DNA from: Planctomycetota bacterium
Lineage (GTDB): Bacteria > Planctomycetota > PLA2 > JAEUHO01
Length of the DNA: 64,000 bases
Direction of reading: 5' to 3'
NCBI GenBank assembly: GCA_965222115.1
Contig: CBDCTJ010000007.1
Coordinates: 1,344,001-1,408,000 of the forward strand
In this document: piece after piece, positions 45,410-53,590 of the stretch
Layout of the letters: each line of letters begins with the position of its first letter
Position numbering within the stretch: position 1 is the stretch's first letter
Program-made: the position numbers and the translations under genes
Notes under the pieces: model-generated
Database searches by the model: none
Seen by the model: the letters and a program-made list of their open reading frames with translations, nothing else
What the model was told of the DNA's origin: nothing

Positions 45410-47275
45410 CTAACTCCGCTTCGGCACCAACGTAACAAAGTGGGCGACAGCGCCTGGGCGCACACCTTCAATCGTCTGCGAACGATAGCCCTCTTTGCTG
45501 AGGCGGATCGTCATGGGCCTGTCGGCGAGGTCGCGGGAGACGAACCAGCCCATGGTGTCGGTGGAGCTGCGGGGTTCGTCGCCGAAGAGGGAGTCGCCGG
45601 TGCTTGCGGGCTTGAGGAGTACGGGGCGACCGCCTTCGGAACGTGAGACGTCGATGTTTACGCCAGCAAGCGGAACGCCGTAAGGATCGTTCACGGCCAC
45701 GTGCAAGGGATAGCCGCGCAACAACGTGACGGACATTGGCGTCTTCGAGGATCGATCGGCGGCTTCGAGGGCCATGGCGTAACCGGGAGCGCGAATTTCA
45801 ACTTCGGCAGGGCCGGTTGGGAGCGACGTCCATGATGCTTGACCGCGATCGTTGGTGAGTGAACGGACGGTAATGCGTTCACCTCGATGGGAGATGTGGA
45901 CGGTGACATGTGCGCGCGCAACGGGCTGGCCCATGCGAGAGGCGACGTGTACGGCGAAGGGCTTGTCTCGCTTGAGTGTTATGCGCTGCGCGTCTTCAAA
46001 CGAGTCGACATTCACACGCATGGGTGAGTGGTCGCCGGATTGAACGAACACGGAATTGCGACCATTGCCCGAGATCGGCACGACCGCTTCGCCCTTGGCA
46101 TTGCTCTTCGCAGTGTTTCGCAACGGCCTAAGGCCAGCTTCTGCCGCTTGGCTGTGAATGTTCACCGTGACTGTGGCGCCGGCAATCGGTTTCCCATCTG
46201 CGTCTGAGACAACGACATGCGCGTCTCGTGGTTTGGGGACCACGACCTTGGCAGGCAACGTCTCGATAGACTGCTCAAACGTATAGGACGAGCCATCTTT
46301 GCGAGTCATCCGCGCGCGAAGCATGGTGTTGACGTTGCCGCTTGGGAGGTCACCAAGAACGCGATCTACTTTGTCGCCCGACCCGCGCACAACCACGCGC
46401 CATGGTCCCTTCCGTTCTTGGGTGGCGATTTCCCAGGTGAGCGTTCCCGTATCAGCGCTCGTGTCAAAGATGACGGGTGCCACGTCGGACCGTGGCAGTC
46501 GTACGACAAGTGTTTCGGGAACGCGCAGCGTCATCATGCGCGTAATGACGCGCGCGGCATCGGCGGCGGCTTCCGTAGGTGGTCCAACTCGTATACGAAC
46601 CAAGTCGTTTCGGGCCGGAACCACCAATGTGCCGTCCTCACCCGTCTTTCCCGCGAGTTTGAATGTACGATTCGCAGTGAGCGCAGCGTCAATCGCAATC
46701 GGCACGCCGGCAATTGTGTCGCCCGATGCGGCATCGACAACGCGTACGGTGCGGGCCTGTGGACGACGGGTCATTCCCGCCGGTGTTGGAGGTAAGCGAA
46801 ACGACAAACGATGCACAGGAATCTGACCGACCTGTCCGTGGCGTAGAAACTGTCCCTTCTTACGAATGCCCAGTCCGCCAATCAGTGACTTCAATCGCGC
46901 GCGGCCCTTTGTGTCGGGCGTGTGCGAAGGCGTGCTATGACTGCCGGGGCTCACCTGCCAGTCCGTACCCATGTCGCCCTTTGCTGTAAGCACTTCTACT
47001 TCTACACCTTCAGGTGGCGGCATGGTGGACGGGGGATCCTTGGGTGTGTCGGCCTCGGTGGGATCACGTTCCGGCGGCGTGTTGCGCTCGGGCGCATCGG
47101 TATGGGGGGTGTTGGTTTGCTCCTGCTTGGTTTTCAGGAACCCACTGCCGCCGCCCCCGGACCACACGCCGGGCAACCACTGGTTGAGCTGAAGGAGAAA
47201 GAACAACAGCACCAATGCCATGAGGAAGAACAGCGTGCGGCGTACACGCATCCGCGGACGTTTCGTATTACCCAT
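45410..47275 (-). CDS. Membrane-anchored carboxypeptidase regulatory-like repeat protein
   Basis: N-terminal TM helix and repeated 'V.D..G.PI.GA.V...T...G' units. Confidence 0.75.
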   Translation of the reverse strand: MGNTKRPRMRVRRTLFFLMALVLLFFLLQLNQWLPGVWSGGGGSGFLKTKQEQTNTPHTDAPERNTPPERDPTEADTPKDPPSTMPPPEGVEVEVLTAKGDMGTDWQVSPGSHSTPSHTPDTKGRARLKSLIGGLGIRKKGQFLRHGQVGQIPVHRLSFRLPPTPAGMTRRPQARTVRVVDAASGDTIAGVPIAIDAALTANRTFKLAGKTGEDGTLVVPARNDLVRIRVGPPTEAAADAARVITRMMTLRVPETLVVRLPRSDVAPVIFDTSADTGTLTWEIATQERKGPWRVVVRGSGDKVDRVLGDLPSGNVNTMLRARMTRKDGSSYTFEQSIETLPAKVVVPKPRDAHVVVSDADGKPIAGATVTVNIHSQAAEAGLRPLRNTAKSNAKGEAVVPISGNGRNSVFVQSGDHSPMRVNVDSFEDAQRITLKRDKPFAVHVASRMGQPVARAHVTVHISHRGERITVRSLTNDRGQASWTSLPTGPAEVEIRAPGYAMALEAADRSSKTPMSVTLLRGYPLHVAVNDPYGVPLAGVNIDVSRSEGGRPVLLKPASTGDSLFGDEPRSSTDTMGWFVSRDLADRPMTIRLSKEGYRSQTIEGVRPGAVAHFVTLVPKRS

Positions 47276-47384
47276 TTCCCCAAGGTAGCAGGTGTCAAGC
47301 TGCCGCGGCTCTCAGTACGCGGACTCGCCGCAACTGACAGGCGAAGTCGACGATCTCTGCGCGGGCGAGCGGTCCGAGGGCTTG

Positions 47385-49055
47385 TTACGCACCTGCCATG
47401 AAGAGGTTTGCCCAGCGTGTGTCGGCGAATTCTTCGCGCGAGGTGCGCAGGACGGCGCGATACACCGGGCTGCCGGAGTTGAGGAACGAGAGTTCCTGAA
47501 TCATCTCAATGGCGTGGAGTCCGCGAGTGGCCTCGATGGCTTGCGGCTGGCCACGCATGGCCTTGCGAACCTCGGCGAGCTTACTGCGTGCGTCTTCAAG
47601 TCGGCCCCGGCGCATCAGGGTGTAGGCGCCGCGAAGTCCGTCTTCCGCCCAGTTGTGGGCGCGACGGGCAACCGACTGCACGCGCACATTACCTGGTTGC
47701 TCGCGACCAATGGAGGCCACTTCCCCCCAGTCGCCGCGACGCGCGGCTTGCTTTGCACGTGCATGGGGCGTGGTACCGCGAGCAGTTGCAACGACCGACG
47801 TGCGAGAACGCTTATCGCGCGCACCGACAGTTGGGCGCGCCGCGCGATTTGCGCGGACAAACACGGGCGTGGGAATGGCCGAGTCGTTCAACTGGCCATC
47901 GGGATCGCCTCGAAGCGACGAACGCAAGGGCCGATTCGTCGAAGCCATAGAACCGTTGGGCAGGAATGACTCAACACGACGAACGGTGGGCGGCGGCAAT
48001 GTGCCGGCGCGCCTCACGCGGTCGACCGAGCGCGACGCGACGCGTCGGTTTGAGGAGGTTCGACGAGCCTCTCTGCGGGGTACCGTTGGGAGTGTGCGAG
48101 CCACGCGGTTGCTTGTCCATCCTGCCGGCGGTGCAGCGTCGTCATTGGATGGCGGTGCAATAGACACAACCGCGCGCGGGCGATAGGGAACGGCCGTCTT
48201 CCCAAACCCATGGGATTCCGTTCGCGGCGCGACGGGGATCGTGCGACCGGAGAGCATATTGCTTGGCAGATCACTCAACGGCGCTGTGGCTGTATTGTCT
48301 CTAATCGACTGGTTGATGAGCGACTCGTTTGAATGCGTGGTGGACGCCCCCGAACCGGGGACTGCACAAGCGCCGCCTACTCAGCCAAATTCAATGGTGG
48401 ACGGCGCAACGAAATCGCGGCGCGACCGTCCCCAAGTTCCCACGGTAGGCATGCCCGCACTGGACGACCCCGAAAAGCGCTGTCGTTGGGTATTCGGCGT
48501 GTGCGCGCGCGACGTCTTAAGGTGTAATTGTTCAGCAGCGTTCAAGTGCCTACGGAATTGATCGAGCGATGTCTTTCCGCTCCAGCCCTGAATCCAACGA
48601 CCGTCGGCGGTAAGAAATGCGCACCACGGATAGAACTTTCGGTTGGAAAGATTCGCATCGAAGAGTGCGCGCAACGATTCATCCATGGACTTTGGATCGA
48701 CGGCCAAGCCAATCGACACCTGGGACACGCGATGTTTCACGCTCGGATGTGGCAATACCTTCTTGCAGAGCAACTTGCAGTACGTGCAGCGCTTGCTGCC
48801 GACTTCGACAAAGATCAGGCGATTGCTGCGCGTAGCTTGCGCAATAGCGGAAGCGAACTGTGTTTCCCAGTGGAGCGTGCCACCGTCATTGAAGTAGGGG
48901 TGACGTGCGGCTTCTGCGTTGTTGCCGAAGGTGCTCATTAGCGTCAATGTGCCCAAGAGCAGTGTCCACAGTCGAATGCTCCTTAGCGCATGACGCGTAG
49001 ACGCACGATGTTCTCGCGCCGCGTGTGGCCTATTGCTGTGTGATCGCTGGCCCAT
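47385..49055 (-). CDS. Putative exported thioredoxin-fold selenoprotein (in-frame UGA at codon 225)
   Basis: GGAGGG RBS, signal peptide and CTYC thioredoxin domain. A single in-frame TGA (48381-48383) lies in G-U-V-G-G-A-C-A-V-P, the frame stays open, and the C-terminal domain is shared with paralog 49402..51504. Confidence 0.7.
48346..48362 (-). promoter_or_regulatory. Candidate bacterial SECIS hairpin
   Basis: GUCCCC-GGUUC-GGGGGC stem-loop; the G-starting loop begins 24 nt after the UGA. Confidence 0.6.
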
Positions 49056-49401
49056 CAACCCTCCGATTCCCAGTCTCGCGCGCGCCCTGCGAGTTCGCTG
49101 GACACCTGCGCGAGACAACAAGTACGCGTGGCGGCGGTTCTTGCGTCCACCACGTCGTTGGACGACGACGAAGCGCACACCCTGACGGACATGGCCCGAG
49201 CTGGACCTTGCCCGACATCGGAGATCGCGCTTCGCCTCCTATTCGTCGCACTCGGACGGGATAAATCGGTTCTTGATAGTTCGTACGTAAAAAATCCTAA
49301 ATATGTACAATTCCGGTACATACGACCGCTATGGGCGACGGATCGAGCCCTCCAAAATCGAAGTGTGAAGGGCTTTGTCGGTTCCTTGATTTTCTACGCT
49401 G

Positions 49402-51504
49402 CTAGCGCTGGAAGAGCGAACTCCAGTAGGAGTTGCCCAGGTCGCGGCGGGCGCGGCTCAGGTAGAGACGCTGCTCACTCGTGGTGCGGGCGGCCTCGAT
49501 GCGCTCGGCGTTGTGGATCGCGATGGCGCCCTTTGCCGCCTCTCGCGCGGCAGCCGTGTGGGGCATGCGGCGGCGCACGCGCTGGAGGTCGTCCCTGGCC
49601 CGGTCGTAGCGACCCTTGCGAATGTCCTCGAGCGCGCCCTGCAACATTTCGTGTGCCCAGGCATCGGCGCGGGAGGACGTGCGTCGCACGGTACCCGGCT
49701 CCGCGTCGGGAGCAGGCGCGTTGGGAGGCAATACTTCCGGAGAGAGTTCCACGGGCGCTTCAACCGGGACGGCGTTGCCATAAGGATGTGTCACACCCGG
49801 CACCTCGGGAAGCGGTGGGGGCGCAATGCCCCCAGAGTATTGGTCGCCCGAATTCTGAGATGCGATCGGCGCCGGCGTTGTTGCGTGAGGCGTCTGGCCC
49901 TCTGATGTTGAATGGCTCTGTGAAGACGATGCAAACACACCGCGCGGCTCGACTTTACGTTCTGGTGTTGCCTCGGGTGCTCGAGCAACGTGACGCGGAT
50001 CTTGCCCCGGCCAAACGTCCTTCGGGTTGTTCCATTCGGTCTCACCGAACTCATTGACGACCGCCTCCGCACCTTCTCGGAACGCAGCTTCCGCTTCGGC
50101 GGCACGCGCGGCTGCATTGGATGCGACGGCTTCACGCTGTTCGCGTTCGGAATCCCTGCGTTCGGAATTAACGTCGGCATACGTTGCGGGGGGCGGAAGC
50201 ATGGGATCACCGGCGGTTGCGGTTGCCGTGTCACCCGGTTGCGCAGGTGTGCCGGCGTACGAACGCGTAGTGGGCACGCGCTGGATGTCACTGCGGAACT
50301 GATCCGGCGTGCGCTTGCCTGAGAAGCCGTGTACCCACTGCATGTCGGCGGTTAGGAAGCCAACAAGTGGCATGAACTTCGCCGTGGGCAAGTTGTCGCG
50401 AAGGATGTTGTCTACGGCGACAACTTCCGGCGAAAGAATCTCGTTGATGTAACCCACCGCAACGAAACGAAGTTCATTCTCGGTCTGTGGCACGGTGGTT
50501 TCTTTGAAGTAATCGCAAATCTTGCAATCGGGCTTGGTGGACAACACAAGAATGTGGCGCCCGCTTTGACGTGCGGCCGCTTGTGCTTCACTCCAACGGT
50601 AATACCAGCGGAATGGTTCGGGGGTGGGTTGCGCTTGGGGAGTAGGCGCTGGCGTATTTACAGCTACAGGTGGTGTGTAGGCTGGCGGTTGCGCTTGTGC
50701 AGAGAGAGTAGGCGGAGCAACAGGTGCAGCATTCGGTGTGGGTGTTGCTGTCATGGCAGGAGGTGCTGGGGGCATGGGCGCTACGGGATTTGGCGTTGCG
50801 GCACGTGGTGCCGGCGTTGTGTAACCCGGAGGCGGTTGCGCGGGGTACGTGTGGGGTGCAGCCGCTGAAGTAGGACCTGCTCCGTAATAGGGTGACGATG
50901 CAGATGGATACGTCGTTGTGGGTTGCGCAGGAGCGGGCGTGTACGAAGGTGCCGGAGCCGATGCCACGGGCGCCGGTGTTGTGCCTGCATACGTTGTTAC
51001 GGCACCTGCATGGGGCGTTGGCGTGGAAACCGTTGCGCCTTGGTACGTTCCGTTTGGATATACATAGGTAGGTGCGGATGCTTGCGGATAGGTGTACGTC
51101 GTATGCGGTGCAACGGTTCCTTGCGGATAGGCATAGGTGGTTACAGGACGTGCAGCGTGTGTGTAGGTTGCAGGTGGCGCCGCATACGTGGTGTGAGGAA
51201 CGGCTGCTTGGGGATACGTATACGTCGGATACGTATACGTGGGTGCTTGCACTTGTGCGGCATATCGTTGTGGCGTCTGAGGCGTTGCCTGCGCAACGGT
51301 TCGGCGTACGGCTTTGCGGCCCGCCTTGGCCGACGTCCCGGCGCTGGGTCCGTAGTTCGGGACAGCGACCGGATCGGGCTCGTCCTTGGACGAACTACAC
51401 GCTACCAACCCCAGTGAGAGCGTCGCAATGAGCGCGAGCATGCTGGGGGCCCTCTTGCAGGCGGAACTGCGCAGGGCAGCGGTCAAAACGCGAGACAGTC
51501 GCAT
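49402..51504 (-). CDS. Lipoprotein with Pro/Thr/Tyr-rich region, thioredoxin-like domain and helical C-terminal domain
   Basis: GGAGGA RBS, lipobox LVAC, TYTYP repeats, CKIC and 'P.VGFLT.D.QW..G.SG'. Confidence 0.8.
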   Translation of the reverse strand: MRLSRVLTAALRSSACKRAPSMLALIATLSLGLVACSSSKDEPDPVAVPNYGPSAGTSAKAGRKAVRRTVAQATPQTPQRYAAQVQAPTYTYPTYTYPQAAVPHTTYAAPPATYTHAARPVTTYAYPQGTVAPHTTYTYPQASAPTYVYPNGTYQGATVSTPTPHAGAVTTYAGTTPAPVASAPAPSYTPAPAQPTTTYPSASSPYYGAGPTSAAAPHTYPAQPPPGYTTPAPRAATPNPVAPMPPAPPAMTATPTPNAAPVAPPTLSAQAQPPAYTPPVAVNTPAPTPQAQPTPEPFRWYYRWSEAQAAARQSGRHILVLSTKPDCKICDYFKETTVPQTENELRFVAVGYINEILSPEVVAVDNILRDNLPTAKFMPLVGFLTADMQWVHGFSGKRTPDQFRSDIQRVPTTRSYAGTPAQPGDTATATAGDPMLPPPATYADVNSERRDSEREQREAVASNAAARAAEAEAAFREGAEAVVNEFGETEWNNPKDVWPGQDPRHVARAPEATPERKVEPRGVFASSSQSHSTSEGQTPHATTPAPIASQNSGDQYSGGIAPPPLPEVPGVTHPYGNAVPVEAPVELSPEVLPPNAPAPDAEPGTVRRTSSRADAWAHEMLQGALEDIRKGRYDRARDDLQRVRRRMPHTAAAREAAKGAIAIHNAERIEAARTTSEQRLYLSRARRDLGNSYWSSLFQR

Positions 51505-51783: not shown

Positions 51784-51964
51784 GTAAGGGGAGTTCGATC
51801 TGCGACCGTAGCTGGGGTGCGCCAATTGCGTCTCCACGACGTTTGTTCGCAATCGCTTCGCGGCGTCACGCAGCGGTCATTGACCACGGCGACAGGCCCG
51901 CGAGCCGCGTGAAAAGAATTCGAACGGGTTGATTTCAACTCGTCTGCTGAAGGAGAGCCATCCC

Positions 51965-53590
51965 ATGGGGGCCAAGCAACTCAGCTTTGATCAAGATGCC
52001 CGCGAACTGATCCGTTCGGGCGTTGAGAAACTCGCCAAGGCCGTCAAGGCCACCTACGGACCCCGTGGTCGCAATGCGGTCATCGACAAGGGGTGGGGCA
52101 GTCCCAACATCACCAAAGATGGTGTGACGGTTGCCGAAGAAGTCGAGCTCAGCAATCCCTACGAGGACATGGGCGCGCAACTTGTCAAAGAGGCCGCCAC
52201 AAAAACCTCCGACGTCGCGGGCGACGGCACCACCACCGCCACCGTACTTGCCGAGGCGCTCTTCCTTGCGGCACATAAGTTCGTATCCGCGGGTGCAAGT
52301 GCGTCGGCAATTGCACGCGGTGTGCGTGAAGCCACCGCCGAGGTTGTCAAGTCGCTTGAAAAGATGTCTCGCAAAGTGTCGGCCGACAAAGCCCACGTGA
52401 AACACGTCGCCACCATCGCGGCCAATGGCGACACCGAAATCGGCAGCATGATCGCCGAAGCGATGGACAAGGTTGGCAAGGACGGCGTCATTACCATTGA
52501 AGAGGGCAAGACGCTCGACACCGTTGTGAATGTCATTCAGGGTATGCAGTTTGATCGTGGCTTCTTGTCGCCGCATTTTGTGACCGACACCGAACGCATG
52601 GAAGTGGTGCTTGAACGCCCCTACGTGTTGATCTGGGAAGATAAGATTTCGGCGGCCACCAAGCTCGTGCCGTTGCTTGAGGCCGTGTCCAAGACCGGTC
52701 GTCCGTTGTTGTTGATTTCGGAAGATGTCGATGGCGATGCACTCGCCACGCTCGTGCTCAACAAGTTGCGCGGCGTTGTTCAGACGGCTGCGGTCAAGGC
52801 ACCGGGGTACGGCGATCGTCGCAAGGCCATGCTTCAAGACATTGCTGTGCTGACCGGTGCAAAGGCACAGTTCAAAGACCTCGCACCCGACCTTGAGAAT
52901 GTCACGATCAAGGATCTCGGCACCTGCCGACGCATTACGATCACCGGTGACAACACAACGATTGTGGATGGTGCGGGTTCTGCCGCCTCGATCAAGACGC
53001 GCATTGCGACCATCCGCCGCGACATGGAAACCACCGACTCCGACTACGACCGCGAGAAGTTGCAAGAGCGCCTTGCCAAGCTCGCGGGTGGCGTAGCGCA
53101 GATCGAAGTTGGCGCCGCAACCGAAACCGAAATGAAAGAGAAGAAGGCGCGCGTCGAAGACGCGCTTCATGCCACCCGCGCAGCGGTGGAAGAAGGCATC
53201 CTTCCCGGTGGCGGTACCGCGCTCGTTCGTGCAGAAAAGGCCGTTGAAGCGCTTCTGAAGAAGTTTAAGGGCGACGAGGCAATGGGTGTGCAGGCCGTGT
53301 TTGACGCACTTTCGGTGCCGCTTCGCACTGTGGCCGACAACGCGGGCTTTGAGGGTCACGTGGTGCTTCGCATGGTGCGCAAGGCCGCGTCGGCGATGGG
53401 CTTCGATGCCACCGTGGGCGAACTCAAGAACATGTTCGACGCGGGCATTGTAGATCCCACCAAGGTGGTGCGCGCGGCGCTTCAAAACGCCGCTAGCGTT
53501 GCCAACTTGCTCGTGTCCACCGACACGTTGATCGCCAATCTTCCCGAGAAGGAAGAGCACGAAGATCACCACCACGATCACGACTTCTAA
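51965..53590 (+). CDS. groEL: Chaperonin GroEL (His-rich C-terminus)
   Basis: [28 protein letters not shown] and GIVDP; ends [10 protein letters not shown]. Confidence 0.97.

Follow-up and report, generated by a model that had tools for sequence, protein, structure and literature searches.

The DNA analysed here is a stretch of 64,000 nucleotides (the window) from a Planctomycetota bacterium (lineage PLA2; JAEUHO01), positions 1,344,001 to 1,408,000 of contig CBDCTJ010000007.1 in assembly GCA_965222115.1. On its minus strand a single frame, read from 49055 to 47385 (1671 nt, 557 codons), is interrupted by one internal stop only, a TGA at 48381-48383 (codon 225). Open reading frame (ORF) finding with translation table 11 returned two ORFs in this same frame, 48381..49178 and 47385..48278. 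A preliminary description of the window, made from the letters alone, had stated that one TGA is all that separates the two ORFs and that standard annotation would split the sequence in two, and both statements were confirmed. When the TGA was translated as selenocysteine (Sec, U), the frame gave ...STIEFG-U-VGGACAVPGSG..., the read-through peptide given in that description. The analyses below suggest that codon 225 is probably decoded as Sec, and that the gene is a selenoprotein gene. The features of the locus, in window coordinates, were as follows.

47385..49055, minus strand: read-through coding sequence, 556 amino acids (aa) plus the TAA stop at 47385-47387, with the ATG at 49055 taken as start
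48381..48383, minus strand: in-frame TGA, the proposed selenocysteine codon (codon 225), aligned with Cys in orthologs; the relative P0003 ends here
48346..48362, minus strand: hairpin GUCCCCG-GUU-CGGGGGC, resembling a selenocysteine insertion sequence (SECIS), 7 bp, GUU apical loop, -10.9 kcal/mol
48357..48383, minus strand: U-V-G-G-A-C-A-V-P motif, in which U takes the place of the first Cys of the family linker motif C-x-G-G-x-C-x-x-P
48909..49055, minus strand: N-terminal signal peptide, about aa 1-49, predicted from sequence; helix 20-40 in the AlphaFold2 model and equivalent N-termini in orthologs
48501..48902, minus strand: thioredoxin-fold domain of DsbH / DsbD-gamma type, aa 52-185, from Pfam, AlphaFold2 and Foldseek
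48777..48788, minus strand: CTYC redox motif, C90-T-Y-C93, both Cys codons being TGC
47781..48488, minus strand: linker of low complexity with abundant Pro, Arg, Ser and Thr, about aa 190-425, variable in orthologs, carrying the U/C motif
47400..47768, minus strand: all-helical C-terminal domain, aa 430-552, ending in a conserved R-W-x-x-L-F
49402..51504, minus strand: upstream tandem paralog, 700 aa, with a CKIC motif, an uninterrupted frame and a linker that lacks the Cys motif

An in-frame GTG at 49178, upstream of the ATG, is a possible alternative start. Around the TGA, 285 codons were open upstream and 331 downstream, and both halves were homologous to orthologs that are single ORFs. The predicted signal peptide starts with basic residues, continues with the hydrophobic stretch LWTLLLGTLTLMSTF, and has AEA and then AR where cleavage is likely. 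The thioredoxin domain was recognised by Pfam Thioredoxin_7 (PF13899) over residues 63-149, at 31.8 bits against a cut-off of 27 and with the CxxC present, which places it in that family; the CTYC motif claimed earlier lies inside this match. Thioredox_DsbH gave a weak match of 25 bits, under its cut-off of 27. Across 57 sequences C90 was invariant and C93 was conserved in at least 90 %.

An AlphaFold2 model, built with 57 homologs, contained two confident domains. The thioredoxin domain (residues 50-185) had a predicted local distance difference test score (pLDDT) above 93, and the C-terminal domain (residues 430-551) consisted of seven helices with pLDDT of about 97. The linker between them was predicted to be disordered, with pLDDT below 50 across most of residues 207-421 and about 41 at the U225 motif, in keeping with the flexible arm on which the motif had been placed. 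Identity of the C-terminal domain was 30-46 % with the corresponding parts of orthologs and 92 % with a fragment, P0029. Foldseek searches against the PDB returned thioredoxin-domain matches alone, the C-terminal domain not having been searched by itself; the top matches for the N-terminal domain were the DsbH-domain protein 7tkv, DsbH (2ju5) and DsbD-gamma (2fwe), with E values from 3.6e-5 to 1e-3. The domain order was that of the upstream paralog at 49402..51504, as previously described: query residues 62-185 and 453-553 were both matched within its one 714-aa open frame, and in the same order.

The paralog itself begins with a lipoprotein-like signal, LSLGLVA-C; between this signal and the thioredoxin domain lies a long segment of low complexity in which Tyr, Thr and Pro abound (for example TYTYPTYTYPQ). 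Tandem arrays of two to four paralogs were also seen in relatives, for example on G010:C264 and G006:C4.

Homologs were found in 37 of 61 genomes including the source genome (G000). They occurred in all 28 of the other genomes from the same family (f1), and in 6 of 11 from a sister family of the same order (f2). In f1 orthologs the thioredoxin and C-terminal parts lay mostly within one stop-free frame of about 360-920 aa, so that the orthologs are fused proteins and not two separate genes. A strict C-x-G-G-x-C was present in the linkers of 6 of the 19 translated non-self loci (examples are CIGGACAPGS, CIGGRCGSG, CVGGNCAPP and CPGGNC), and a relaxed form in 2 more: CADGGC, and CANGQC with N in the first Gly place. 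CVGGNCAPPS and CPGGTCGRHP are further examples from orthologs. Orthologs carried one to several such linker Cys pairs.

The motif was also common among database proteins. A HMMER scan of 1.84 billion representatives gave 236 matches at E <= 1e-3, and motifs were counted in the 149 matches listed after P0003 (P0005-P0153), 52 of them full-length by regular expression. C.GG.C occurred in 14 of these 52, against 0.04 expected from shuffles, and the relaxed form in 21. A Pro at +8 was found in 16 of 24 strict-motif instances, and the family motif was therefore written as C-x-G-G-x-C-x-x-P. The UGA stands at the first Cys of this motif, producing a Sec/Cys pair; the match is one of motifs, as the linkers are too variable for column-by-column alignment. 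At this level the check proposed in the preliminary description, for a Cys or TGA at the aligned position in orthologs, came out in its favour. Sec/Cys pairing with homologs is a strategy for recognising selenoprotein genes (PMC13188914).

The GC-rich hairpin reported downstream of the UGA was found at 48346..48362. Its loop starts 25 nt past the UGA, or 24 nt, the distance first given, if the closing G-C pair is counted into the loop. Bacterial SECIS (bSECIS) elements are described as having a loop of 3-9 nt, an upper stem of 4-16 bp and a G in the first two loop positions (PMC13188914, Fig. 2 legend), at 16-37 nt from the UGA and with a minimum free energy of -7.5 kcal/mol or below (PMC13188914). 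The candidate hairpin agreed with this description in all five respects (3-nt loop, 7 bp, G first, 25 nt, -10.9 kcal/mol). Hairpins at other TGA codons of the source genome and of f2 orthologs served as controls.

Trx7/PDZ gene, source genome (T-U-Q-P-U-K-D-C): 8 bp, GUU loop, 26 nt past the second UGA
Thioredoxin_7-like gene, source genome (SPGULGC): loop CGUGAC, 23 nt, -8.0 kcal/mol
Thioredoxin_7-like gene, source genome (KPGUPPC): loop CGUGU, 24 nt, -5.1 kcal/mol
selD active-site TGA, source genome (AAAGG-U-AAKV): 12 bp, 21 nt, -16.2 kcal/mol
f2 ortholog L036 (UxxC): 8 bp, GUU loop, 18 nt
f2 ortholog L033 (UxxC): 8 bp, GUG loop, 18 nt

The candidate hairpin resembles those of the other selenoprotein genes of the lineage and is predicted to be a SECIS element. 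Its background frequency was low. Following 19,999 random TGA trinucleotides, a perfect SECIS-type hairpin of -7.5 kcal/mol or below was found after 1,104, and one of -10.9 kcal/mol or below after 245 (1.2 %); for 687 TGA stops of long ORFs the corresponding counts were 43 and 9. Genome-wide, 168 of 134,942 TGA (0.12 %) were followed at 16-37 nt by a stem of at least 7 bp with a GUU or GUG triloop, a figure that is somewhat post hoc since the triloop criterion was set after the controls had been seen, which does not apply to the 1.2 %. At least 40 open codons upstream and at least 25 downstream were present for 22 of the 168, and two of the 22 looked gene-like by eye: the candidate itself, and a gene reading FEMWGH-U-PGC that resembles redoxins and matches AhpC-TSA weakly (19.6 bits).

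The hairpin does not simply follow from encoding the peptide motif, because the Cys-codon motifs of orthologs lack an equally stable one. Among 11 Cys-codon motif instances in orthologous loci, one was followed by a hairpin of -7.5 kcal/mol or below and none by one of -10.9 kcal/mol or below; for the closest motif, CIGGACAPGS, the hairpin reached only -3.8 kcal/mol. The fold of the whole 76-nt stretch around the UGA was unremarkable (z = 0.23), a measure that is uninformative on the local hairpin.

Genes for Sec synthesis and insertion were then considered. In the source genome selA (416 bits), selB (346.6 bits) and tRNA-Sec (71.6 bits) were intact and above their cut-offs. The preliminary description had called for Sec machinery in the same genome, and for these three components it was borne out; selD was present too but disrupted at a contig end, as discussed below. 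In the other f1 genomes selD was found in 26 of 28, and in 24 of these it was intact with one in-frame TGA, which indicates, on gene content, that the clade uses Sec. A Trx7/PDZ (seleno)protein gene of the source genome, at G000:C7:1860520-1861863 (L058:221-1564), matched NF041199 at 352 bits against a cut-off of 300 and contained two in-frame TGA; the review table lists this family as CxxU with one Sec (PMC13188914). Four molybdopterin enzyme matches had no internal TGA, and no Sec formate dehydrogenase was seen with the query used.

Other likely selenoprotein genes were observed in the source genome. That at G000:C7:1777834-1778430 (L059) reads SPG-U-LGC in a protein of 198 aa. That at G000:C1:30806-32170 (L060) reads KPG-U-PPC in a protein of 454 aa with a thioredoxin domain and a TPR-like tail. 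A further one, G000:C7:2165205-2166332 (L062), reads WGH-U-PGC in a protein of 375 aa with a weak AhpC-TSA match. Each of L059, L060 and L062 had a downstream hairpin with a G in the first two loop positions.

The explanation that competes best with Sec decoding, though we consider it unlikely, is that the TGA is a true stop. The gene would then be split or truncated, with an N-terminal thioredoxin protein and a separate or silent C-terminal ORF, or would be an incipient pseudogene. Standard decoding does yield two ORFs, and the protein P0003 ends at the same place, so that a shortened form could be the conserved product. P0003 (212 aa, from a 170,822-bp ENA contig) was found by a word-based protein search with the N-terminal half as query, and is 69-70 % identical to that half; the same search returned nothing for the whole candidate protein (P0001) and only the window's own protein for the C-terminal half. 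In a global alignment with free end gaps, the last residue of P0003 fell opposite G224, just before U225, and in both proteins the stop lies 11 codons past a shared D-[FY]-V. The linker tails have strongly diverged, while the stop position was kept. Since a relative of 69-70 % identity ends exactly at the aligned codon, the stop looks old.

If the stop is shared with P0003 and is old, what follows it is difficult to reconcile with termination. From the TGA onwards, nine codons still read as the family motif, with xGGxCxxP after the stop, and 331 codons remain open and encode the conserved C-terminal domain, whereas neither a pseudogene in decay nor an intergenic spacer under drift would be likely to retain the motif and the frame. 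The first in-frame start past the TGA is a TTG 35 codons downstream, so a C-terminal domain made alone would lack a signal peptide and would not be exported; in the fused orthologs it would be exported within one protein. A SECIS-type hairpin also lies at the right distance, of a kind found after 0.12-1.2 % of TGA and with none as stable after the Cys codons of orthologs. No T-run stands behind this hairpin, and a scan of 47200-49400 for terminators and promoters found nothing terminator-like at the hairpin and no promoter of a sigma-70-like type. Some family members in databases are N-terminal-only or C-terminal-only, which speaks for a split gene, though many such entries are fragments from contig edges or the portions that follow a UxxC TGA.

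Several observations nevertheless weigh against decoding of codon 225 as Sec. The principal objection concerns selD, which looks damaged in the assembly: in the last 1.7 kb of contig C1 (G000:C1:653900-655637, L061) its high-scoring segment pairs fall in three frames, and the frame matched by the hidden Markov model contains 5 TGA and 1 TAA, although the active-site TGA is kept (AAAGG-U-AAKV). If this damage were real, Sec could not be made. We think that a poor contig end is likelier than a dead selD gene, because several selenoprotein genes of the source genome have intact read-through frames. P0003 is known from its protein alone, and its stop may not be a TGA. The linker TGA was seen in 0 of the 28 other f1 genomes, so the form is rare, and a single substitution suffices to turn a Cys codon into TGA. 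Finally, an Rfam scan of 47300-49300 at E <= 10 gave two chance-level matches, neither of them related to SECIS.

Selenocysteine decoding is favoured overall because of four lines of evidence: the Sec/Cys motif, an old-looking stop with intact sequence downstream, the SECIS-type hairpin, and the presence of selA, selB, tRNA-Sec and other selenoprotein genes in the genome.

It is highly improbable that the TGA arose from faulty sequencing or assembly, or that it is a nonsense allele of very recent origin in the population sampled, with TGC or TGT as the real codon. Logan contigs from three runs (X1, X2 and X3; two samples, one study) span the TGA and agree, with 0 differences over the stretch, so the misassembly that would have undone the earlier proposal was not seen. 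These runs are possibly the source data of the assembly itself. A fourth run, X4, did not cover the TGA; Logan contig depth was only about 4, and at least one part of the assembly, the end of contig C1, is riddled with indels. Against an error, the protein of an independent relative (P0003) ends at the same codon, and the SECIS-type hairpin, which Cys-codon orthologs lack, would be left unexplained.

Downstream RNA structures can stimulate stop-codon read-through in general, and read-through of the UGA without Sec (by near-cognate Trp, Cys or Arg, or through stimulated leakiness, giving full-length and truncated protein) would explain the intact downstream frame with no need for selD, but it has very little to recommend it when the position is that of a conserved redox Cys, for which Sec is the usual replacement, when the hairpin matches the SECIS type of the lineage's other selenoprotein genes (UxxC contexts), and when selA, selB and tRNA-Sec are intact.

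Relatives of the candidate and of P0003 were sought further. None was found at the DNA level in metagenome contigs or genome contigs, and the sources of P0003 and P0049 were not among the genomes searched (29 of the family, 40 of the order), where the best identities were 44 % and 53 %. P0049 is an N-terminal-only relative of 233 aa whose last residues are ...GPGLICEGGT, so that it stops one short of the second Cys position of CxGGxC; it may represent a selenoprotein with CxGGxU, or its contig may simply end there.

With Sec at codon 225, the preliminary description's exported selenoprotein, in which Sec stands apart from the thioredoxin CxxC, is probably correct; the TGA in three runs, the fused Cys orthologs, the hairpin conforming to bSECIS, and selA, selB and tRNA-Sec all support it. 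We infer Sec insertion, export and the shuttle role alike. Together, the two annotated ORFs would encode a single exported selenoprotein of about 556 aa, composed of a signal peptide, a DsbH / DsbD-gamma-type thioredoxin domain with CTYC, a long disordered linker and a helical C-terminal domain. The hairpin with the GUU loop, 25 nt downstream, would direct SelB and tRNA-Sec to decode UGA-225. The U-V-G-G-A-C motif could then close as a six-residue selenylsulfide ring, its two glycines making a flexible dithiol-type loop on a mobile arm, which would be a second redox centre. Such a loop might exchange electrons with the thioredoxin CxxC (CTYC), or with extracytoplasmic or cell-envelope substrates, and selenium would make it a faster nucleophile and leaving group. 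The motif may also have a metal-binding role.

Thioredoxin-fold selenoproteins (Trx, DsbA-like, DsbG-like, and Trx7/PDZ NF041199) normally carry Sec in the UxxC or CxxU of the fold (PMC13188914, Table 1). The candidate resembles them in its thioredoxin-fold context in a probably Sec-using bacterium, in the Sec/Cys pair with homologs, and in a SECIS-type hairpin directly past the UGA, and it shares the GUU triloop with the Trx7/PDZ gene of the source genome. It differs in that CTYC is retained and the Sec would lie about 130 residues further on, in a UxGGxC of the disordered linker.

The f2 homologs have the same architecture and homologous domains. All six f2 genomes with a match carry one TGA in the thioredoxin part (G031, G036, G037 and G039 among them). 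At the two loci inspected, L036 (G030:C31:274832-278329) and L033 (G032:C149:2494-5997), the TGA with its 8-bp GUU or GUG hairpin was read as GRKL-U-GNC and GREK-U-GNC. Unlike the candidate, these forms would have Sec at the first position of the thioredoxin motif, and their linker is short and without CxGGxC. As Sec would stand in the thioredoxin motif in f2 and in the linker in the candidate, sequence comparison suggests that the protein family has two alternative positions for Sec. In the representative library, several proteins of about 230-250 aa begin just past the f2 UxxC site and look like halves downstream of a TGA. P0036, a relative with CxxC at the thioredoxin motif, matched no NCBIfam model.

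The closest structural parallels of the N-terminal domain are DsbH and DsbD-gamma (2ju5, 2fwe, 7tkv), which are periplasmic disulfide reductases; identity is 15-20 %, and these proteins lack the long linker, the helical C-terminal domain and Sec. For the linker motif, the parallels are in mechanism. Mammalian thioredoxin reductase has a mobile redox tail with a C-terminal Gly-Cys-Sec-Gly, and class I and II ribonucleotide reductases have a C-terminal CX4C pair on a mobile tail. The candidate loop would resemble both as a redox pair on a flexible segment that shuttles electrons with a structured site, and it shares the CX4C spacing with the ribonucleotide reductases. This is an analogy of mechanism only: there is no homology, and those enzymes are cytoplasmic, with the pair at the extreme C-terminus.

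The representation of this arrangement in existing catalogues was also examined. TsoB (NF045694), a rhodanese/DsbD fusion-like selenoprotein, has the motif UxxxxU (PMC13188914, Table 1). It is similar to the candidate in the four-residue spacing between two chalcogen residues and in a DsbD-like thioredoxin part, and dissimilar in having two Sec and another architecture. The candidate protein matched 0 NCBIfam families at E <= 0.1, and thus none of NF041199 trx7_PDZ_seleno, NF041382/NF041383 VPGUxxT and NF045694. The 2026 review PMC13188914 contains none of the terms UxGG, UxxxxC, CxxxxU, PF13899 and PF03190, and term searches of it turned up no such family. Among the papers listed by a literature search none mentioned the CxGGxC motif, though the tables of BSepDB (PMC13326102) and deep-Sep (PMC12013277) may list the family. 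Within these sources the arrangement, which the preliminary description did not recognise among described families, was not found.

A wider proposal can be put forward only tentatively, and may well prove wrong in part or as a whole. It holds that one exported family has recruited Sec independently at two redox centres, as UxxC in one lineage and as UxGGxC of a disordered linker here, with P0049 as maybe a third form, CxGGxU. Outside the cytoplasm, the linker loop and the thioredoxin domain would act together, the loop as a mobile selenylsulfide shuttle arm and a bacterial counterpart of the Sec tail of thioredoxin reductase, and the proteins would form an uncatalogued selenoprotein family.

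If Sec decoding is correct, the candidate represents an additional selenoprotein family, one that is split by standard annotation, and indicates that Sec can be selected in a motif of an intrinsically disordered linker, beyond the catalytic motif of a folded domain. As the same protein would have its Sec at the thioredoxin site in sister lineages, the family would be a natural experiment on where selenium pays in a two-centre thiol relay. The hairpin type of the lineage (7-8 bp, mostly G+C-rich, GUU or GUG triloop, 18-35 nt past the UGA) could serve as a search handle for more selenoprotein genes among these uncultured bacteria.

The next gene downstream on the same strand, 45410..47275, contains CarboxypepD_reg and Big_1 repeats. 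In the source genome, contig C6 (48,116 bp) has a G+C content of 39.7 %, against 55-59 % in the other six contigs; it may be a plasmid, some foreign element or a contaminant introduced by binning. Elsewhere in the window, on the plus strand, a GroEL-like chaperonin gene at 51929..53590 ends in a His-rich tail.

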